Origin: Octopus vulgaris | Taxonomy: Eukaryota | Direction of reading: 5' to 3' | DNA length: 64,000 nt | Assembly (NCBI GenBank): GCA_951406725.2 | Contig: OX597827.1 | Coordinates: 73,160,001 to 73,224,000, forward strand | In this document: positions 13,118 to 61,273 of the stretch, piece after piece | Layout: each line of letters opens with the position of its first letter | Position numbering within the stretch: position 1 is the stretch's first letter | Position numbers and translations under genes: made by a program | The notes under the pieces: generated by a model | Told to the model about the DNA's origin: nothing | Seen by the model: only the letters and a program-made list of their open reading frames with translations | The model's database searches: none

Positions 13118-14297
13118 CATGAACGCCACAGTACAATTCATCGGAAACACCTCAGAAACCTTTGATATTCGACGTGGGGTGAAACAGGGATGCGTGATAG
13201 AGCCTTCACTTTTCCACATTTACTTCGCTGTCGTGCTGAAGTATGTATTTGGTACGCAAAACGACGGTGTTTGCCATACAGTCGGACGGTAAAGTATTCA
13301 ATTTGTCATGGCTTAATGCGAAGACCAAAACCCGCAGGGTTTACGTCCGGGAGATGCTGTTTGCCGACGACGCGGCTCTAGTGGCACATTCAGAACTGCA
13401 ACTGTAAACAGACGTACTGTACCTTCAGCTTATCAATCAGCCAACAGAAGACCAAGGTAATGAGCCAAGGTGTCTCGGATTCCCACTCCTATCATTACCA
13501 TCGACAACCACTCACTCGATGTGGTCCGTGAGTTTACGTACCTTGACTCAACACTTACGGAAGGCCTCACACTCGTCCAGGAGCTGAACGGGTTAGCAGC
13601 TTCGACCTTCGCCAAACTAGCTCAAAATGTATGGTCAAACGGCAAGCTGACGAGATCCACCAAATCCACAGTCTATAAAGTTTGTGTCCTCAGCACCTTG
13701 CTATACGGCGCTGAGATCTGGTGCCTTTACGCCAAACCAGAGCTCCGCCTGAATGCCTTCTATCTACACAAAGTTCAGAGTATTCTCGGAGTCAAGTGGA
13801 ACGACCATATCACCCACAACGAGACACCCATTTCCGGCTATTAACTACTTCCACACTGCTTCAGCAAAGCCGTCTTCGCTGGCTGGAACACGTGCACCCG
13901 ATGTCTGATGGGAGGTTACCGAAAGATATACTGTATGGGGAGCTAGCCTCCAGCAGACGGGCTCGCTGACGACCACATCTCCGTTTCAGGGATGTGTGCA
14001 AACGTGACATGAAGGCCATGAGTATGAATACCAAAGCCTGGGAGAACATGGCAAAAGACCGTTCTTTCTGGAGACAGACGCTGAGTACCGCCCTGATGGA
14101 AAAAAAAGATCACATTCATCAGACATCAGAGGACAGATGGAGAGGCAGGAACAAACGACCAACCGACCAACCACATTTGCGAACGTTGCTGCTGTGACTG
14201 TCACTAATAGATTGGCCTTGTCAGTTACAAGCGATGCTGCAACGCCAATCCAATCTAAGGGGCAGATCCATAATCTTTCGAGACTAACGGATGCTAA
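13118..14297 (+). mobile_element. RTE-clade LINE, 5'-truncated, degenerate reverse transcriptase and C-terminus
   Basis: GVKQGCVIEPSLF, MLFADDAALVAH, FTYLDS, LLYGAEIW, RLRWLEHV..MSDGRLPKDILYGEL, FRDVCKRDMK across frameshifts and stops. Confidence 0.92.
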
Positions 14298-26066: not shown

Positions 26067-26863
26067 TAGGACTACATTATCAATTGTGCTCACCCGACAG
26101 GACTACATCATCTAACGTGTCTTTCCTGCATCGTGTGTCTAGGACTACATTATCAATTGTGCTCACCCGACAGGACTACATCATCTAACGTGTCTTTCCT
26201 GCATCGTGTGTCTAGGACTACATTATCAATTGTGCTCACCCGACAGGACTACATCATCTAACGTGTCTTTCCTGCATCGTGTGTCTAGGACTACATTATC
26301 AATTGTGCTCACCCGACAGGACTACATCATCTAACGTGTCTTTCCTGCATCGTGTGTCTAGGACTATATTATCAATTGTGCTCACCCGACAGGACTACAT
26401 CATCTAACGTGTCTTTCCTGCATCGTGTGTCTAGGACTACATTATTATTTACAATGTGTCCATCTGTGTCTAGACTAATTATCAATTGTGCTCACCCGAC
26501 AGGACTACATCATCTAACGTGTCTTTCCTGCATCTATCAGTGCTCACCGACAGGACTACATCATAACGTGTCTTTCCTGCATCGTGTGTCTAGGACTATA
26601 TCATTTAATGTGTCCATCTGGCAGAGTGAATCTAGGACTCATTATCCAGTGTGTTCCCATGACATATTGTATCAATGTTTGTTTCCATTGTTTACGAGAA
26701 TCGACGGAGTGAGAGTATCCATACCGCTTCCACCGTCAGCTTGGTGCTGTTATCCTGTTTGCTACTGCGACGATTTTTGTTGTAAATACGTGTCTTTCCT
26801 GCATCGTGTGTCTAGGACTATATTATCAATTGTGCTCACCCGACAGGACTACATCATCTAACG
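26067..26863. repeat. 73-bp minisatellite (5 near-perfect copies plus degenerate copies)
   Basis: taggactacattatcaattgtgctcacccgacaggactacatcatctaacgtgtctttcctgcatcgtgtgtc with period 73 from 26067. Confidence 0.95.
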
Positions 26864-37869: not shown

Positions 37870-38792
37870 ATAGAACATCTACGTAATCCCATGTACTCAC
37901 AATTTCTGATAATAGGGCGTGAATCAAAGAAAGCTTTTGCCTCAATTTCTATTAGTCAAAGTACACCATTTCATTGGTTAGAATAAGTATAACAATTATG
38001 ATTTTGCGGTCAGTACAATCGGTTAATTTTCCATGCATTCCACTCCGCTGAGTTTAAGGATCCTGTGCAGACTGGAGTTGCTGTATATTTGTAGGGGTTG
38101 GTCCCCTCCTACGCTGCGTACGGTTTTGAGGATGTTGTACAAAGTGTTATTATAAACTGTTGTTATAGCGTTGAGTCAGTTTCGTATTGTCGCATTGTGT
38201 TACGACAGTAGAGTCGTGGTGGTGGTGGCGGTGGTGTTAATGTTGACGGGGAAGTAATGCTGCAGAAGAAGAAATAGAAACAAAAAGAAAACGAAAAGAA
38301 AGAAAAAAAGACAAAGGAATGAACGAAAGAAGACAGTGGAAGCACTTATGCTAAAACGCCATCTTTACTAGTTGAGTTCTGTGGCTCAAAGGTGGTGGGA
38401 GAACCAGGAATGCGGGGCGGGGGGGATGGTTCTAGGTGAGAAGATGCTGCCGCACAATGGCTACATATTTACGTGCATTGACTGACAAATTAGAAACAAA
38501 ACACCTTATTGATAATCAGTCATGTGTATGCATTTACACACACACACACACACATACACACACACATATACACATACACACACACATACACACACACACA
38601 CATAAACACACACACATACATATACACATACACACATACACACACACGCTCATATTGTCACATATATAGTCATATATGAATTTGTGTGACTATATGAGCG
38701 TGTGTGTATATATATATATATATGTATGTATGTGTGTGTGTATGTACATATATATATATATATATGTGCGTGTGTATGTATATATATGTATG

Positions 38793-38823
<31 letters not shown>

Positions 38824-38855
38824 GTATATATATGTATATATATGTATATATAACT

Positions 38856-38906
<51 letters not shown>

Positions 38907-39193
38907 TAAACGGATGGCCATATATTGGAACTCATGTATTCCGGTGCATGTAACATACACCCACAGAGACATATAAATGTACACAGGCATACATATATTC
39001 ATACTTATTAACTGGCACCTACACAGACACGCATATATACACATGCACACACGTGCCAGCACTCACACACACACATGCAGATGCATATAAATCGATGCAG
39101 AGAGATATTCTGACACATTCGTGTGTAAACTCCCTCATATAAAGACACGTGCATCCATATTGACAACTATCAAGGCATACTAATGTGTGTGTC

Positions 39194-39229
<36 letters not shown>

Positions 39230-39451
39230 GGGGAGGGAGGGGAGGGCGAAAGTGAGACAAAGCAATTTATACATGCATATAAGCATATACATATATACAT
39301 ATAATACATACATAAACACACAAACACATATTTTATACACGCATATGTATATATATATAGATGAATATTAGTATATATACACCATATAAGCATACATATG
39401 AATTCCATATTATATATATATGTGTGTGTACGTGTGTGTGTGTGTGCGTGC

Positions 39452-39483
<32 letters not shown>

Positions 39484-39552
39484 GTGAATATGTATGCATG
39501 TATGCCATATATATAATATATTTGTGTGTGCATATCTGTATGTATATATGTG

Positions 39553-39612
<60 letters not shown>

Positions 39613-39668
39613 ATTAGAGATAAAACCACTATTTGTCAAATCAAATATATATATATATATATATAAAG

Positions 39669-39700
<32 letters not shown>

Positions 39701-40456
39701 AAGAAAGAGAGAGAGAGAGAGAGAAATGCAAAAGTCTTGGAATTACAGCATTTTAAAGTGAGGGACAACCGTGGGAAGGAGGACGTTTGGTGAAGTAGCC
39801 GTGCGTTGAGTACGGGGAAATGACGTTCAATTCTAATCACGTACAGGAGAGACATCCGTGTTGAAATCCATGGAAGACACACCCTCGGCAGGTCATTGCA
39901 AACTGACCCCTGACCAGAAGTTCGAGGGCTGGAAAACAACATGGCATTTGTCGGCAAGGAATAAAGAGTTTCCATGACTAGAATTTATAAAAATTAAATT
40001 ACATTACAATAACAACAGAAAATAATGAAAGACACCTTCCTTAATGAATCTGTTTATCTCAGTCTGTTCTCTTCCCCTCTCCTTCCGTGTGTGTGTGTGT
40101 GTGTGTGTGTGCGTGTGCGTGTGTCTGTGTATGTGTGTCTATGTATATGCATGTATATATATCTTTTATTAAACTTTTAATACTTTTGATATTTATTTAA
40201 AAAAAAAATAAATAAATAAAAATAAATAAATAAATAATTAATTAATTAATAAACAAAATAATATATAAATATAAAATAATATACATACATATATATATAT
40301 ATTTGTGTATATATATTTAAAATTTATAAGTTTAAATTATTTTAATAATTTTTTAATTTTTAACTTTTATATTTTTTAATTAATTTTATGTATTGGCTTA
40401 TGTTTTTCACTGTTTGATTTGCCTAATAGTGGTTTTATCTCTAATTTAATATAATA

Positions 40457-40519
<63 letters not shown>

Positions 40520-40526
40520 GAAGGAG

Positions 40527-40573
40527 CTTCTACAGGACTAGAACTGTTTCATTCAAGAGAAATCTTCAGGAAG
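40527..40573 (-). ncRNA. Type I hammerhead ribozyme motif with canonical core
   Basis: cttc CTGAAGA T TTC tctt GAA T GAAA CAG ttctagtc CTG TA gaag; all three stems present; embedded in (TA)n. Confidence 0.75.
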
Positions 40574-40765
40574 ATTATATATATATATATTTATATATAT
40601 ATATATGTATATATATATTGTGTAACTAAAACAGTTTAACTTTTTAACGCAAGCGTGTGTTCCTCAATCTTCTGGATCTCCACAGATCAGAGTCCAATCC
40701 ACCTTTGTAGGATAAATGGGCATATTTAATTTATTTTCCTCACTATAATTGATATATATAAATCC

Positions 40766-40998
40766 AGGTAGTGGGAGTGGTGCTGGTAACATTCAGACTA
40801 CATATGTTTCGTGGCTAGCAGATCCCCTGATGTTAGTATCATTCAACGAGGGTTACTCAGCCAGCGACTCACCAGGCCAAAGATACCTTAATTACACATG
40901 TGTACCTGTCTGAGTACCCCTCGTTGAGTAATTATCATATCAGAGAATCTTCTTGCTAGGAAGCATGAGTAGTTTGAATTTTACCTGCTCCATTGCCT
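40766..40998. repeat. Imperfect long inverted repeat (~90-100 bp arms)
   Basis: ttcaacgagggttactcagccag pairs with ctgtctgagtacccctcgttga; arms extend out to aggtagtgg / ccattgcct. Confidence 0.75.
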
Positions 40999-41200
40999 CA
41001 GCAACTCAAGATGGCAATTTTGAGGTATAAAAAAATGTTTTCAGCTTTTCGAACTTCGATATAGGAAAAGCTGACAATCTTCGATGCTAATAAAATATTA
41101 TTCTCCCTGAACATTGTTTTTTTATATCTAACAGGGACTTCTCGAAGCTTACTATCTTCCCACAATTAGATCCTTGACTCTTATATATATATATATATAT

Positions 41201-41378
41201 GCGTAGGAGTGGCTGTGTGTGGTAAGTAGCTTGCTTACGAACCACATTGTTTCGAGTTCAGTCCCACAGCGTGGCACCTTGGGCAAGTGTCTTCTACTAT
41301 AGCCTCGGGCCGACCAAAGCTTTGTGAGTGGATTTGGTAGACGGAAACTTGACAGAAGCCCGTCGTATACACACACAC

Positions 41379-41443
<65 letters not shown>

Positions 41444-41670
41444 ATATATATATGTGCGTGTGTGTGTGTGTCTGTGTTTGTCCCACCAACATCGCTTGAC
41501 AACCAATGCTGGTGTGTTTACGTCCCATAACTTAGCGGTTCGGCAAAAAAGACCAATACAATAAGTACTAGGCTTACAAAAATAAGTCCTGGGGTTGATT
41601 GGCTCGACTAAAGGCGGTGTTCCAGCATAGCCAAAGTCAAATGACTGAAACAAGTAAAAGAGTAAAAGAG
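41201..41670 (+). mobile_element. SINE family A, full length
   Basis: Head, internal (CA)n, aaaagagtaaaagag tail. Confidence 0.9.
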
Positions 41671-41751
<81 letters not shown>

Positions 41752-42255
41752 GTGTGTGTATGTATGTATGTATGTATGTATAACTATTAAGTATATGAAT
41801 CCTGTTTAAAATAGACATGACTCCAAGAACAATAAACAACACCATACCAATGTACTTGAGTTTTTTTTTTATCTCGGCTACCGACGAGTACTTTCTGACA
41901 ACTCAGATTTTTCTATTACGAATGTGTAGGAGGCTAAATTGTATAGCTACATGCGGAAAAATAAACTATAATCTATTTTGACATCTAATCTCCTCCATAT
42001 TACATAATTATGAATCAATTTGCTGAAGAAGTTGATTCATATACTTAGTATTTTATATATAAGCTTTCATATCAACACTGAGTTACACTAGTATATTCAA
42101 AAGTAAAGTATGGAGAAACAATGTTAGAAATCTTTTGGAAATTACTCCACAAAAGGACGAACTCGCTTTCAATCTTTTAAAATTATACATACATACTTAT
42201 ATACATACATACATACATACATACATACATACATACACACACAGACACACAGACA

Positions 42256-42301
<46 letters not shown>

Positions 42302-42325
42302 TATATATATATGTATATATATATT

Positions 42326-42925
42326 ACGGAGATGTAGTTGCATAGCAAGTGACCTGATCTGTGATCGTGTGCTGGAACGAAAATAATTGCAGCGTGGAAG
42401 GTATTTATTAACCATTTAAAAAACACACAAAATCCGTTAGATTCACTTCAACATTTAAATTTAAAAATTTAATTTCTCAAAATATTTTCGGCGCTTTGAG
42501 ACCCCGACCTGTTCACTGACAAAAATCCGTGCAGCACGGATTTTTGTCAGTGAACAGGTCGGGGTCTCAAAGCGACGAAAATATTTTGTCACGGATTTTT
42601 GTCAGTGAACAGGTCGGAGTCTCAAAGCGACGAAAATATTTTGTCACGGATTTTTGTCAGTGAACAGGTCGGGGTCTCAAAGCGACGAAAATATTTTGTC
42701 GCGGATTTTTGTCAGTGAACAGGTCGGAGGTCTCAAAGCGACGAAAATATTTTGTCACGGATTTTTGTCAGTGAACAGGTCGGGGGTCTCAAAGCGACGA
42801 AAATATTTTGTTACGGATTTTTGTCAGTGAACAGGTCGGGGTCTCAAAGCGACGAAAATATTTTGACAAATTAAATTTAAATGTTGAACTGAACTTAAAT
42901 GTTGAACTGAACTTAAATGTTGAAG
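42326..42925. mobile_element. PLE-like fragment with head-to-head inversion and tandem hammerhead-like array
   Basis: Starts after (TA)n; symmetry centre tccgtgc-a-gcacgga at 42533; six 55-56 bp units on the right arm. Confidence 0.65.
42536..42870 (+). ncRNA. Six tandem minimal hammerhead-like units with G3-C8 core
   Basis: TTTGTCA GTGAACA G GTCG gggtctcaaag CGAC GAAA ATAT TT TGACAAA (last unit); unit starts at 42536, 42591, 42646, 42701, 42757, 42813. Confidence 0.6.
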
Positions 42926-43464
42926 TAGTTGTGATAATAAAGTTGTTGTTGCTGTTGTAGCTATCCTCATGTTTATCCTCAGGTCAGGCCCTCAACGAGC
43001 AGCCGTATGAACAAAGGCTTCCCTGCCGTGATAACCCCTTATTTCATATGCCCAACGAATGCAGGACTACACAATTCAGCGTGTCCATTTGCTTTTTAAA
43101 GTGTAGAGTGTATCTTGAGGGAGATTTGGTTGATATGTCTAGCAGTTCTCTCAACTATGGAGGCTCCCTCGTTGGCTAGTGGTGATGATGTTAGTATTAA
43201 TAATCCTTCGATTGACATACGATGCTATTCAGAAGTATTTCAGCAGTAACAGTGATATGTGCAGCTGTTGCACTATTCATATTATCGAAGAGTAGGAGAG
43301 AGAGCGAGAGAGAGAGAGAAAGAGAGAGAGAGAGAAAAAGAGAGTGAGAGAGAGAGAAAGAGATAGAGATGAAATTTTATATCTGACAGCAGGTCAAAGG
43401 TGTTCACCTTCGTACGGAGCTTACTGCTAACGCCACCTGACGGCGTTAATATCTATACTTCCTT

Positions 43465-44041
43465 AGGGCGGGGAGCTGGCAGGAACGTTAGTATGCCAGG
43501 CGAAATGCTTAGCCGTATTTCGTCTGCCGTTACGTTCCGAGTTCAAATTCCGCCAAGGTCGACTTTGCCTTTCATCCTTTCGAGGTCGATTAAATAAGTA
43601 GCAGTTACGCACTGGGGCCGATGTAATCGACCTAGACCAGTTGTCTGTCCTTGTTTTTCCCCTCTGTGTTAAGCCCCTTGTGAGTAGTAAAGAATTGGTT
43701 TTTCGTGTCTTTACGTTCTGAGTTCAAATTCCGCCGAGGTCGACTTTGCCTTTCATCCTTTCGGGGTCGATTAAATAAGTACCAGTTACGCACTGGGGCC
43801 GATGTAATCGACTTAAACCATTTGTCTGTCCTTGTTTGTCCCCTCTGTGTTTAGCCTCTTGTGAGTAGTAAAGAATTGGTATTTCATGTCTTTACGTTCT
43901 GAGTTCAAATTCCACCGAGGTCGACTTTGCCTTTCATCCTTTCAGGGTCGATAAATTAAGTATCAGTTGCGTACTGGGGTCGACCTAATCGACTGGTCCC
44001 CTCCCACCAAAATTTCGGGCCCTGTGCTTAGAGAAGAAACG
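43465..44041 (+). mobile_element. SINE family B trimer (181-bp internal period) with 17-bp TSD
   Basis: aatatctatacttcctt (43448-43464) / aatatatatacttcctt (44042-44058). Confidence 0.88.
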
Positions 44042-44611
44042 AATATATATACTTCCTTGGTTGGTTGACTAGTTGTAAGCAATTTTCTTGTAAGAGACTC
44101 TTTACTGGAACCAGTAAACACCCCCACCCCCACCACCACCATCAATAAGAAGAACAACAAAAATATCAACAACAACAATAACAATAAGAACAACAATAAC
44201 AACAACAACAACAACAATAACAACAACATGTACATGTCTGATGTCTTCAATGAACTTTTGCATTACATATTGTATATTGTATCGTGTATTGTAATAGACA
44301 GCATATGATATTTTGTATGACGTCTTGTATGATATATTTGAATGGTATATGGTATGCTATAAACTCTATGCATAAGGTAAGAGAGTTAGCTTATTACTGC
44401 GACCACGATAGACTCTCTACGAGTACGTACACGGGTGCGTGTCTAAGTGTGTGTTAGTACGTGCATATATATGTGCGTATTCGTTAGTCGCTATCTCCGT
44501 GTGTGTATGTACACGTGTGCATACGCCTGTTTGCGTATATGCGCTTTGTGTAGATGGTCTTGTATATATATATATATATATATAAATGTGTGTGTATGTG
44601 TGTGTGTGTAA

Positions 44612-44789
44612 GGTGCTGGCGTGGCTGTATGGTAAGAATCTTGCTTCCCAATCACATGGTTTCAGTGACACCTTGGCCAATTGTCTTCTCATATAGTCTC
44701 AGGCTAACCAAAGACTTGAGAAGAGATTTGGTAGACAGAAACTGAAAGAACCCTTTCTTGTGTGTATATATATATACATATATATATAT
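44612..44789 (+). mobile_element. SINE family A, degenerate 5' half
   Basis: gtggctgtatggtaag...gatttggtagacagaaactgaaagaa. Confidence 0.7.
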
Positions 44790-45560
44790 CAATGCTTCAT
44801 CATTTCGTGGACATCGTGAAGCGATGAGTACTCTTTCCAAACGTCATTCGTTGTTATGTGATCTCTGATGACTATGAAGTCCAGTGCTGGAGAGACAGAT
44901 ACCTTCGAAGGTGGAGCATGTAAAGCCTTACTACTATTGGCTTTCCGGGTTCTGCACCTACCGCCAAGTGCGGCGTGCCACTTCACTCTGCAGTCAATCT
45001 TCTTGGAGTTTGGTGGTGCCAGTCTTGTATGCGCCGCACCAGCTAGTGCAATCTGCAGCCATTGATTCGAGATTGTCGGGAGGGATATGACACTTTTTCG
45101 GGAAGGATATGACAAGTGCTTGTGCTGGCCACTAACGGAGTGTCTTCCATCTTCAAGTTCACCGTACATAACAAGGCGGGGCAATCGATTTGAAGGCATT
45201 CAAATGACATACCCTGCCCATCTGAGTTGGCGTTTAGCGAATGTTATCACTAATAGCTGGCTGTCTGGCCACGTTTGGCATGTGGGATCTTGCATCACCA
45301 GTGTAAGCCGAGAAGTTGTAGAAGGCAAGATATATGAAATTGTTCGAGGATCTTGATATGTCGCCGGTAGGACACCCAAGACTCGCAGCCACATAGCAGG
45401 ATTGAGACACAAACAGCGTTGTAGACAACCACTCTTGTTTTGATGTTGATGCTTTTGTTGAGACGGACGTGAGTACTTAGCCACCCAAACGCAGGAGAGG
45501 CAAGACAAATACGGCATTGAATATCGTCTGTCAGAGTGAGGGTGTTGCTGAGGACGACAA
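44790..45560 (-). mobile_element. RTE-clade LINE 3' fragment
   Basis: KRQLRWAGYVI*MPSNRLPRLVMYGELEDGR; LLCGCESW-type motif upstream. Confidence 0.85.
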
Positions 45561-46053
45561 TTGTTTCGACACATCTAGCTTTGATCCCTCACGGGTGGGA
45601 CACTTAACAGCTGGTTCAGAAGCATCCAGCGGTGCAGATGTGTCTCATCGCGTGATAAATAGATATAACTCGTTAAAACAACAGCCCCGAAATGTATCTT
45701 CTCATTTTGTAGAAAGAAAAGCAGGAAATCGAAGGAAATGTCTTCATTTTTATAGAAGATCCAAAATAAAATAAGATAAAAGATGCAAAAGAGAAACGAC
45801 CACTCAATACAGCAAGAAAAGTATTAAAAGTAACTGTTAATATACATGGATGTATAAATGCTCTCGCGCAAGCTGCATGGCGCGAGTACATTCGCTCATA
45901 GAAGCATTCGCGAAATTGTAAGCATATGCACACGTGTGGTTTGGTGAACACACACTCACATGACGAGTTTAATAGCTATTTGGTGCTTATAAGAATGGGA
46001 AGGTTAAAGCTAAACTTAATTCATCCATACCTTAAAGTAGATTATGTTAACAT

Positions 46054-46455
46054 TTACTCAAATTCATTCCCACTGCGTTGTCCGAAAGTACATTTATATG
46101 CATGTAGACATCTTGAGAGCCTTTCAGAAATTCTATTAATGATCTTCTTACTAGTCCACAGAATTGACAGGGATTCCTCGGAGCAGAGATGGTATCTCCT
46201 GGAAATTATATTGCATGGTTTCAAGTACCTTACTATGGACCAAGTAATACGTATTTTATGTTCCTTCTTTAGCCACATGAAATCGGCCAAAATTGTGAAG
46301 CTGGCGACATGGTTGCGATGACGATTCTTAAATAAATCATCCGTCTGCCCAATGTAAACATACGGCCCTCCCCTTGTGTTCACGTTACATCTATATACAA
46401 GATTTGTACTAATACCGAGGTTCATCAATGGGCATTTTGACTATTCTCTGCATGA
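46054..46455 (-). pseudogene. Penelope-like element GIY-YIG endonuclease domain
   Basis: CR...KCPL upstream, then LVYRC...YIGQT..LFKNRHRNHVASF...ITWSIV...LCSEE...IN...E....C.H. Confidence 0.8.
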
Positions 46456-46474
46456 TCATTTATCATATTTATTT

Positions 46475-46715
46475 GTATATATGACAGTGTGTGAATGTGT
46501 CTTTGTGTCTATGCTTGTCCCCGCCACATAGCCGCGAGGCAACTGGTGTTGGTATATTTGCGTCCACGTAACTTAGTATTTCGAGAAAAGTGACCGATTG
46601 GATAAGTAACGGATTTAACAATAAAATAAATACTGCGGTTGATTCATTCGGCTAAAAATTTCGAACCAGTGCTCCAGCATGGACACATTCTGAAACAAGT
46701 AAAAGGAAGAAGAGA
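46475..46715 (+). mobile_element. SINE family A, degenerate 3' half
   Basis: cgtaacttag...gtgctccagcatgg...ctgaaacaagtaaaag. Confidence 0.7.
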
Positions 46716-47104
46716 AAGATCTATAAACATGTGCCTCTGGCTGTGTATTTGTGTATTATGTATATGTGTGCACGTGTCTTCGTCTAGACGCAATACGTAA
46801 TTATTCACAGTTATTTTCTCGCTGTGTATGAATCTGAACTCTAACTCGATCCAGTCGAATCGATAAACTTCCTTCTCCAATACGGTGTTCAATAGGAATT
46901 ACAATTGGTTGCAACTGTTCTGATGAATATTACATGTAATTCCAGGAGGGTCACTTGTTAATGGGGGTCACAGAATATTATAACACCGATGACGTCATCG
47001 TTCAACATCGAAACATATCCAGCTTGATTCACCAGCTCCACGTGTGATTCGATGTGTTTTCTTGCACTCTGACGCTAGAATTCCGTGTGTCAGACAAAAG
47101 CAAC

Positions 47105-47290
47105 GAGCAGGTCGAATTGTTAACGCGCCGAACAAAATGCTTAGCGGCATTTCATCCGCCTTTACGTTCCGAGTTCTAATTTCGACGAAGCCAGCTTCGC
47201 CATTCAACTTTTCGGGTTCGAGAAAATTAGTACCAGTCCAGTACTGCCCCCTACCCCGACATTGCTGGTCTTGTTCCAAATTTTGAAAAT
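47105..47290 (+). mobile_element. SINE family B, diverged
   Basis: aaaatgcttagcggcatttc...ttacgttccgagttc. Confidence 0.7.
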
Positions 47291-47377
47291 CAATATTTGT
47301 CGGACTAAACTCCGTATCCCTCATAGGATCATAGATATGACATACATACATTCATACATGCACACACACACGCGCGC

Positions 47378-47428
<51 letters not shown>

Positions 47429-47516
47429 TAAGGGGAGAAATTGATATTAATCAATTAAAACCAGTGGCCTAGCATATTTTAAAAAATCCGAAGATTAAAA
47501 ATTTTTTTACATACAA

Positions 47517-47823
47517 AATTTAGAGGACTGACTTCTAAAAGTGGACAGCCAAAACGCTAGATATAGACGTCAAAGTCGACATTTTCCACGAAGAATGTGT
47601 TCTCAGGAAAAAACTCGGCAAAAACCAAAGTGTAAAAGTAAGCAAGACAAATGGAAATATACGAATCGTTTTTTTTATTTCGTATAATTTGATTTGATTT
47701 GCTTATTTTAACACTTTGGTCTTTTGGTGAGTTTTTTCTTGAGAGCACATTCTTCGTGGAAAATGACGATTTTGACGTCAATATCTAGCGTATAGGCTGT
47801 CCAGTTTTAGTGGTCACTTTTCT

Positions 47824-47828
<5 letters not shown>
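47517..47828 (+). other. ~310-bp imperfect palindrome / long RNA hairpin inside a (TA)n-flanked insert
   Basis: Arms 47517-47643 and 47701-47828 are reverse-complementary; inner stem tatacgaa/ttcgtata. Confidence 0.9.
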
Positions 47829-47876
<48 letters not shown>

Positions 47877-47879
47877 CTA

Positions 47880-48000
47880 CATGCAACTCAACTTTCAAAC
47901 GTTTCCTGGATGACTATCGCCAATAAATTCGAGATAAACCTACATCTGGATATACTTGTGCAAACAATAGCTCTTCACTCGACTGGTGAAGGGTTGAGTG
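47880..48000 (+). mobile_element. Possible CR1/L2 LINE C-terminal relic
   Basis: FKRFLDDY...DKPTSGYTCANNSSSLDW (across a frameshift) resembles CR1-type ORF2 ends. Confidence 0.4.
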
Positions 48001-59984: not shown

Positions 59985-61273
59985 GAGGGGCGTTCAATAA
60001 GTAATGCCCCTGACCCACTTCCCTTAGCAGAAGAGCAACGAAACTTGGCACAGTTATTAGTCTTTTTCTACCTAGGAGCCACCCACAGTTACGCATTTCT
60101 CCCATCGTTTGATGCAGCTCTGGAGACCGTTTTTGTAGAAGACCCTAGCTTGGTCCTCCAACCACGACATGGCTTCAGAAATCAAGGCTGCATCATCTGG
60201 AAAACGTTTTCCTTTCAAAAACAACTTCATGGCTGGGAAGAGGTGAAAATTAGAGGGTGCACGGTCAGGAGAGTAGGGAGGTTGGGAGGAGTTCATAGCA
60301 GCACGCCTGTGCTTCTGATCTGGCGACACGCGAGTTGTGGACCGGAGCGTTGTCCTGCAGGAGGAGGATGCCTTTGCTGATCTTGCCCCGCCTCTTGATT
60401 TTGATAGCTTCTCTTAATTTCCTCAAAAGTGAAGCATAATAGGCTCCTGTAATTGTGGTACCCTTTGCCAGGAAATCTGTCATCACTACTCCGTCCTGGT
60501 CCCAGAAAACTGTGAGCATGACCATGCCAGCGGAGGGCTGCACCCTTGTCATCTTTGGAGGATGTGAGTCACGGTGCTTCCAATGCATTGACTGGGCTTT
60601 GGTCTCTGGATCATAGTGATTGACTCAGGTTTCATTCTGTGTAATCAGTCTTTTGAAAAATTTTGACTCATCTTCTTGGCACATCTCCAAATTCATCCTC
60701 GAGCACTCGACGCGTTCTTGCTTCTGGAAAGGTGTGAGCAACCCGGGAATCCATCTGGCAGACACCTTTTGCATATGCAAATGGTCATGAATGATAGTTT
60801 CCACAGACCCGGTACTAATCTTGACCTCATGGGCTATTTGGCGAATAGTTATGCGTCGATCTTCCAAAATGGCAGCCTCAACTTGACGGACAGATGCCTT
60901 ATCAATGGCAGAAGGGGGCAACCAGATCTACGAGCTGTTTCCACAGAGTTCCGACCGTGTTTGAACTCATGATGCCAGCGTTTTACAAGGTCATATGATG
61001 AGGCATCATCACCATAAGTTACTTTCATTTCATCAAAAGTCTCCCGTGGTGTGCATCCTTTCAAATACAAAAACTGGATCACTGCTTGACACTCAACAGG
61101 CTCCATTTCACACTTGACTCAGTTCAAACACCTGTAAATCAGAAACTACAATTAGTTCAGAGCTGTAATTTGCTACTTAATCTATAGAGATACAAATAAA
61201 TGCACATGCAAAATTTCAGCTAGATCAAACAAATGCAAGTGGGTCAGAGGCATAACTTATTGAACGTCCCTCG
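59984..61273 (-). mobile_element. Complete-length mariner DNA transposon (1290 bp) inserted in (TA)n
   Basis: TIRs cgaggggcgttcaataagtaatgcccctgacccactt / aagtgggtcagaggcataacttattgaacgtccctcg; TA on both sides. Confidence 0.95.
60072..61106 (-). pseudogene. Mariner transposase, frameshifted
   Basis: HTH region, KVSARWIP, ITQNET*, VMLTVFWD, LLQDNA, PPYSPDRAPSNFHLF spread over four ORF pieces. Confidence 0.93.

Follow-up and report, generated by a model that had tools for sequence, protein, structure and literature searches.

A natural G3-C8 hammerhead motif in a family of Penelope-like elements from Octopus vulgaris, and its sixfold repetition at one locus

Minimal type I hammerheads are known from the pLTRs of metazoan Penelope-like elements (PLEs) (Cervera and de la Pena, 2014, PMC4209133). 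They cleave weakly and as dimers (PMC4209133; reviewed in PMC6765202). (Here and below, statements about published systems refer to excerpts of the cited papers.) U3-A8 covariation has been described for the PLE hammerheads of Schistosoma mansoni (PMC4209133), and U3-A8 is also found in natural, active hammerheads (Perreault et al., 2011, PMC3088659). G3-C8 has been described as an engineered variant (PMC3884650; PMC11167929; reviewed in PMC8495972). In particular, cleavage was partly restored in a C3G/G8C laboratory mutant of the hammerhead of Poseidon, a PLE of the lizard Anolis carolinensis (Frangieh et al., 2024, PMC11167929). The insertions of PLEs are marked by an inverted partner arm, 5′ truncation, a tail, and (TA)n targets (Craig et al., 2021, PMC8557442), and insertion marks of this kind, with two 3′ ends, have also been reported for Poseidon (PMC11167929). 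Finally, animal non-LTR retrozymes consist of type I hammerhead units arranged head to tail (Cervera and de la Pena, 2020, PMC7229834; Li et al., 2026). Abundant monomeric RNA, linear and circular, is a further mark of retrozymes.

The window that we analysed is a 64,000-nt stretch of the 2.8-Gb genome of Octopus vulgaris, and it is rich in microsatellites and mobile-element remnants. A protein labelled Octopus vulgaris at NCBI is matched by this genome with 100% identity over 130 residues. On its + strand it contains an array of six units of 55, 55, 55, 56, 56, and 55 bp (42535–42866; Table 1 lists the features of the locus). TRF reports 6.0 copies at 42535–42865 with a period of 55 and 96% matches. 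A pattern for the core matched seven times in the window, six times on the + strand (G3 at 42550, 42605, 42660, 42715, 42771, and 42827) and once on the − strand (42516–42480), and it matched in 0 of 100 shuffles. These results bear out the initial annotation, which had described six units of 55–56 bp and an inverted copy mirrored at 42533. The inverted copy had also been given a boundary at 42472: the copy is present, but this boundary does not hold, and the arm continues to 42323. This left arm contains the hammerhead, a short spacer, and the inferred ORF start, and 176 of its 200 aligned bases are identical to a young copy of the family (L045), up to reference position 207 of 207. We infer the ORF start from the by-eye likeness of its 31 codons to the N-terminus of the 1,311-codon frame of a sister family (see below). 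The sister-family frame used for this comparison sits after the hammerhead in a tandem copy. The right arm breaks off in an 18-bp repeat, about 55–60 bases short of the family's short 3′ end.

Table 1. Features of the array locus, with positions counted from the first base of the window.
Feature	Position	Strand	Remark
(TA)n stretch, tail of the microsatellite at 42185–42324	42301–42324		Target of the insertion; (TA)n is a common end of family copies; 42185–42311 by TRF
Left arm, assigned to the 3′-terminal 210 bp of the Penelope-like element	42323–42532	−	Reaches the long 3′ end of the family
First 31 codons (inferred) of the ORF of the element, within the pLTR	42323–42415	−	ATG-led frame in the reference copy
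Inverted hammerhead copy with G3-C8 core, G3 at 42516	42473–42523	−	One substitution in stem II, one in stem I
Centre of the head-to-head inversion of the two arms	42533		Arms 42478–42532 and 42534–42588, 98% complementary
Units 1–5 of the local tandem duplication	42535–42811	+	Each with an intact G3-C8 core
Unit 6, sole complete hammerhead motif of the right arm	42820–42870	+	G3 at 42827, C8 at 42832, predicted cut after 42863
Native pLTR continuation of the right arm	42871–42893	+	Alignment to L045 stops at reference position 88
Second slippage-type local repeat (an 18-bp stretch of the pLTR, 2.7 copies)	42877–42924	+	Adjoins the array

The last unit of the array had been threaded onto a type I hammerhead, and every part of this threading matches the sequence. 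In unit 6, stem I pairs 42820–42826 with 42864–42870 (7 bp), and the remaining parts are the core GTGAACA, one extra G, stem II (GTCG/CGAC, 4 bp), GAAA, the palindrome AATATT, and a U as H17. The internal units retain four of the five proximal stem I pairs, which can likewise be read from the sequence as the initial annotation had it. In these units (1–5, with predicted cut sites after 42586, 42641, 42696, 42752, and 42808), the junction replaces the 3′ strand of stem I, so there are six cores in tandem and a full stem I in unit 6 only. All seven copies in the window have the palindromic stem III AATATT. In the family to which these copies belong (the G3-C8 family), stem II is 5 bp long (GTCGC/GCGAC), and the fifth pair has been lost in all seven window copies. 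The predicted cleavage site of the native family motif is after GAAAAUAUUU. The motif does not have the letters of the canonical CUGANGA ... GAAA ... UH, as it has G at position 3 and C at position 8, and the remaining core positions match. An Rfam scan of 38000–48000 with E values up to 10 reported no hammerhead family, and unconstrained folding of the monomer gave a stability that is not unusual (z = −1.09).

In its type I layout and its place in a pLTR, the motif is like the hammerheads of metazoan PLEs (PMC4209133). It also shares with them the extra base between positions 9 and 10.1, the G10.1-C11.1 pair, the palindromic stem III, and the occurrence in thousands of mostly solo copies with some pairs on opposite strands. 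The pLTR position, the extra base, the palindromic stem III, and the covarying stems (see below) all agree with the PLE-type minimal type I hammerhead that had been proposed from the window. Unlike the hammerheads of PMC4209133, whose 3-8 pair is C-G or U-A, the pair here is G-C, with purine and pyrimidine exchanged.

When positions 3, 7, and 8 were left free, the family motif had 5,129 exact matches in the genome and 0 in the reversed control. Both G3 and C8 are present in 4,751 of these copies. Position 3 is not G in 112 of the 5,129, and position 8 deviates in 266 of 5,017; among 100 listed of the 112 non-G3 copies, 8 have C3, and all 8 retain C8. Rates like these resemble what decay ordinarily produces in young copies, and they do not prove selection. 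Recent amplification would likewise make a family uniform, and the uniformity seen here shows no selection. The subfamilies vary in loop II, and their stem II stays at 5 bp. Seven older copies (66–81% identity) have G3-C8 as well, in a search whose pattern itself demanded G3 and C8. About 5,000 motifs in one genome thus escape both CUGANGA searches and Rfam, as the initial annotation had anticipated for CUGANGA searches.

We looked for further families that combine G3-C8 with a 2-base loop III and obtained 729 matches versus 834 in the control, so there is no second high-copy G3-C8 family of that shape; old relatives of the G3-C8 family were among the matches listed. Combining the canonical core with the family's stem III gave 14 matches (control, 3), namely two family copies with C3-G8, one copy of a sister family, one look-alike at an inversion junction, and others that are unrelated. 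The two G3-C8 family copies that carry a canonical C3-G8 core are L127:1492-1545 and L121. (The L127 insertion has a G3-C8 core in its inverted arm, and its canonical motif agrees with the canonical sister family over the 5′ half; conversion or a template switch may have produced this mixed state.)

A sister family whose ORF is 52% identical has a C3-G8 motif behind its ORF, with stem II GTCAC/GTGAC. We found the motif in 25 of 30 loci of this family, and 24 of the 25 are C3-G8. Genome-wide, a pattern of C3 with stem II GTCAC/GTGAC had 5,236 matches (control, 0), with G8 in 99 of 100 listed. Further relatives with a fully canonical core were found at 19 loci, and in 2 of the 19 an endonuclease remnant lies upstream on the same strand. 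(At a third canonical-core locus, the remnant is on the opposite strand.) In 20 aligned copies, which were hand-picked and are related to each other, so that the count amounts to few independent events, the 3-8 pair is complementary in 20 of 20 (C-G in 10, G-C in 9, and U-A in 1). Stem II is 98% paired in these copies (27–46% in slid controls), the three proximal pairs of stem I are 85–100% paired, and distal stem I is paired in about half. The extra base after A9 and the G10.1-C11.1 pair are invariant in all 20 rows. Covariation at positions 3 and 8 is also known from natural core variants (PMC3088659).

Because the relatives have C3-G8 (U3-A8 at one locus) at the same place and their stems covary, we conclude that the swap is a real compensatory change. 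This is what had been proposed from the window: copies across the genome are mostly G3-C8 rather than CTGANGA or random at positions 3 and 8, the sisters are C3-G8, and the stems are conserved by covariation. Of the 11 fixed core positions, 3 and 8 alone set the G3-C8 family apart from its canonical relatives, and the two have remained complementary (a rough post hoc chance of 1 in 165). A canonical minimal core with a 2-base loop III had 23,061 matches genome-wide (control, 808; L162-L191). Given the canonical relatives, the complementary changes at 3 and 8, and the abundance of canonical cores elsewhere in the genome, G3-C8 is most likely the derived state. The swap likely keeps the active-site pair and a working fold.

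Two observations concern other repeats. One family dominates the first 100 listed of the 23,061 canonical-core matches. Also, another repeat contains a minimal hammerhead with U3-A8 (L018:1716-1765) and an inverted copy of it (about 1132–1181), and a copy of the G3-C8 family is inserted into this inverted pair.

The 55-bp unit is part of the 3′ end (pLTR) of a Penelope-like retrotransposon. Upstream of the hammerhead motif there is a 1,025-codon open frame with a YVDD motif. A C-terminal GIY-YIG domain matched Pfam above the cut-off in 3 of 9 frames scanned and more weakly in 2 more. The Pfam RT family had no match in the frames scanned, and the RT was assigned from motifs (YVDD) and from a homolog that is labelled as an RT-domain protein. 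A Cys-rich linker (CX2-5CxxC) precedes the endonuclease. In 28 of the 30 best GIY-YIG ORF loci, the G3-C8 motif lies 924–1,108 nt past the stop. The combination of RT, CX2-5CxxC linker, and GIY-YIG is that of the C-terminal EN+ PLEs of the Nematis and Neptune clades (PMC8557442). The short linker is nearer to the Nematis than to the Neptune rows of Fig. S2 in that paper, as judged by eye. In contrast to our element, Poseidon does not have a Cys-rich linker before the endonuclease; the two are alike in that the hammerhead lies near the ORF start in the pLTR (PMC11167929). Direct pLTRs flanking a full-length ORF were seen in the sister family and in none of 19 long loci of the G3-C8 family, all of which are 5′-truncated or inverted. 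Contigs from runs that we guess to be RNA cover the end of the ORF and the pLTR, and they are uninformative on ends, strand, and level.

We also looked at the sequence just 5′ of the motif. An ATG there was rejected as the ORF start, as both subfamily variants reach a stop within about 22 codons, in different frames. GAG replaces CAG before this ATG in 12 of 39 copies, and the one 3′ UTR that was scanned held no convincing splice donor to account for this GAG. Just 5′ of stem I (L061-L090, about 22 bases 5′ of the core), a branch point, a pyrimidine tract, and an AG resemble an intron acceptor, and this motif has 508 exact matches. Copies start within 26 bases of G3 in 27 of 29 pattern-selected copies. 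The acceptor-like motif, the clustering of starts, and the GAG may reflect a short spliced template.

A set of 29 pattern-selected copies shows how the element inserts. An upstream arm in inverted orientation is present in 19 of them, and two discrete 3′ ends about 60 nt apart (reference 144–150 or 205–207) cover all 29. The inverted arms and the two 3′ ends match the PLE insertion marks of PMC8557442 and PMC11167929, and the 5′ truncation, the inverted partner arm, the tail, and the (TA)n targets are those of Nematis and Neptune PLEs in particular (PMC8557442). As in Poseidon, the two 3′ ends define a tail and uncleaved RNA is inserted, although the spacing of about 60 nt here compares with a tail of 30–40 bp in Poseidon (PMC11167929). 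Of the 19 inverted arms, 15 reach 5′ of the cut site, and none begins 3 nt or less away from it. The inverted copy in the window is the usual two-armed Penelope insertion.

Could the array be more than a local duplication? The initial annotation had suggested that the tandem arrangement works as in retrozymes. On this reading, the array would be a nascent, smallest retrozyme: read-through RNA would be cut as double hammerheads into 55-nt monomers that circularise, and rolling-circle copying would have written the unit six times. It could further be seen as a 55-nt self-processing multimer with the Penelope protein as chaperone, i.e., as a new minimal RNA replicon arising from a pLTR. Each of these proposals has, we think, only a slim chance of being correct. 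It is true that every unit has the full core and that the array, like animal retrozymes, is of PLE origin (PMC7229834; retrozymes are described as PLE derivatives in bioRxiv 10.64898/2026.07.22.740005) and is arranged head to tail. Also, the array junction lies 2–3 nt behind the predicted cut site, and changes between units sit in loop II or preserve wobble pairs (a weak hint of constraint). Changes at the junction preserve wobble pairs. Another tandem-hammerhead junction is shared by two loci that lie 2.5 Mb apart with unrelated flanks (L230 and L231, G000:C20:19511070 and 21994373), which suggests that a duplicated template was copied twice and hence that a tandem form can be copied. However, when we searched for the 3′ half of a hammerhead followed by the next 5′ half within 30 bases, we found 10 matches in the genome, and 5 of these are the array. 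(The pattern was exact, and diverged arrays could escape it.) The other 5, among them L230 and L231, are single duplications or inversion scars with other junctions, so that the array junction is confined to one locus and its monomer forms no dispersed family. At 55–56 bp, the monomer is outside the 200–400 nt of described animal retrozymes (PMC7229834), and its core is minimal and non-canonical. The differences between units are mosaic, and the 18-bp slippage repeat adjoins the array. The internal units have a stem I of four pairs and a mismatch, and they are predicted to misfold: in a model that ignores tertiary core contacts, the double-hammerhead fold is at −9.0 kcal/mol versus a minimum of −21.5 for units 5–6 (12.5 above) and at −5.6 versus −28.5 for units 3–4 (22.9 above), i.e., 12–23 kcal/mol above the predicted minimum, as compared with −28.8 versus −32.7 (3.9 above) for a two-strand trans dimer of a native family copy. 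A transcript of the locus is also predicted to pair one unit with the inverted arm. With the junction at one locus and a predicted dimer fold so far from the minimum, a retrozyme-like role of the array is not supported; the array is likely inert and likely makes no small RNA circles.

An alternative that we take more seriously, doubtful as it is, is that the family motif is of hammerhead origin and has lost the ability to cut. The folded RNA would be retained for another use, such as protein binding, splicing, or the control of reverse transcription, and G3-C8 would have been fixed by drift in a master copy. The sister family with intact ORFs fits this idea. In 25 of 30 loci its position 9 is C, its proximal stem I is 3 bp long, and its stem III is not palindromic, and nevertheless it has many near-identical copies with long open frames; this form is the commonest among the first 100 listed of the 5,236 sister-type matches. 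Damage to the core is thus tolerated in this clade, and the motif may be able to do without cutting; this speaks against fast cleavage being essential. (This sister PLE family, at L192-L221 and L330, e.g., G000:C19:14370500-14380000, is young and has 1,311-codon frames in tandem.) That no inverted arm starts at the cut site, together with the C9 sister family, makes it less plausible that cleavage is strictly required. Most inserted copies have the motif uncut, and the lizard PLE inserted in vitro without cleavage (PMC11167929). Against this idea, 3 and 8 are the only ones of the 11 fixed core positions that differ from the canonical sister families, and they are still complementary; the U3-A8 relative (L018) also exists. 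The 3-8 pair positions the ribose of the catalytic G8 (PMC8495972), so its retention points to an active fold. That the resemblance to a hammerhead arose by chance, or that the array is an artefact of assembly, we regard as very improbable. The lack of an Rfam hammerhead match and the unremarkable folding z-scores would agree with a chance resemblance, but relatives with canonical cores lie in the same position behind related ORFs and share the stems. As to the assembly, one Logan contig of run X2 shows a 55-base step back, and contigs that lead from the element into the unique right flank exist for three of the four runs (X2, X3, and X4, but not for X1). X2 may be the sample behind the assembly, and the organism label of X3 differs. 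From the step back and these flank joins, the array is probably genuine and goes back further than one individual. (A contig of X4 passes over 57 bases of the array, which may be a shorter allele or a paralogue.)

We think it probable, then, that the locus is a two-armed, 5′-truncated Penelope-like end in which the hammerhead segment has been repeated sixfold and whose G3-C8 state was inherited from its family, likely keeping the active-site pair. The RNA of the parent element would have been reverse-transcribed from two internal start sites, giving two arms, one with a long end and one with a short end. The first duplication likely came from a template switch at insertion and was then likely expanded by slippage or unequal exchange, so that the array would be a local by-product. 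The hammerhead of the parent element lies about 1 kb past the RT/GIY-YIG ORF and, where copies are in tandem, likely just ahead of the start of the next ORF. By analogy with tested PLE hammerheads, the native motif would fold as a minimal type I ribozyme and cleave slowly, either assisted by the element's protein or after dimerising at its AAUAUU palindrome. Inserted copies come mostly from uncleaved RNA. That the native family motif cleaves at all is something we lean towards only slightly.

Elsewhere in the window, there are 2.6 tandem copies of a 181-bp repeat at 43530–43994, which we take to be SINE-like, and 73-bp and 119-bp repeats occur as near-identical tandem copies at 26067–26445 (5.2 copies) and 1571–1809 (2 copies). 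A long imperfect inverted repeat at 47555–47791 is MITE-like and has a sub-threshold match to Rfam MIR841. The broken frames at 60075–60927 (−), 13464–13841 (+), and 44792–45588 (−) resemble a mariner transposase and RTE-type LINE reverse transcriptases. No host gene was evident among the long frames of the window on inspection of the frames themselves. A GIY-YIG-like remnant at 46057–46440 (−) looks similar to another PLE ORF in the genome (L096:4194-7001, P0002), which by eye resembles the rows of the Hydra clade in Fig. S1 of PMC8557442.

To place the G3-C8 state in the literature, we searched for natural examples. There were none in the portions of PMC4209133 covered or in one of its supplement files, and G3-C8 is not named in the excerpts of PMC3088659. 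The wider literature search (including PMC6155905, PMC13481778, PMC10085705, PMC13282606, and PMC7229834, in the portions covered) gave no natural G3-C8 either; the likeliest source, Lunse et al. (2017), lies outside that search. G3-C8 was engineered in Poseidon (PMC11167929), and the family described here has it as its wild type. A G3-C8 hammerhead that is natural and shared across a whole PLE family thus appears to be new within this literature, in which we otherwise met the state only in an engineered mutant with partial activity.

To this, the six-unit array contributes little more than a ready-made multimer for assays. Hammerheads of PLEs cut weakly, and insertion can proceed in vitro without cutting (PMC11167929). 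The clade described here is a natural test set in one genome, with a G3-C8 family, relatives with C3-G8 or U3-A8, and a successful sister family without A9. The wild-type motifs of this clade could tell selection on cleavage from selection on the fold alone.
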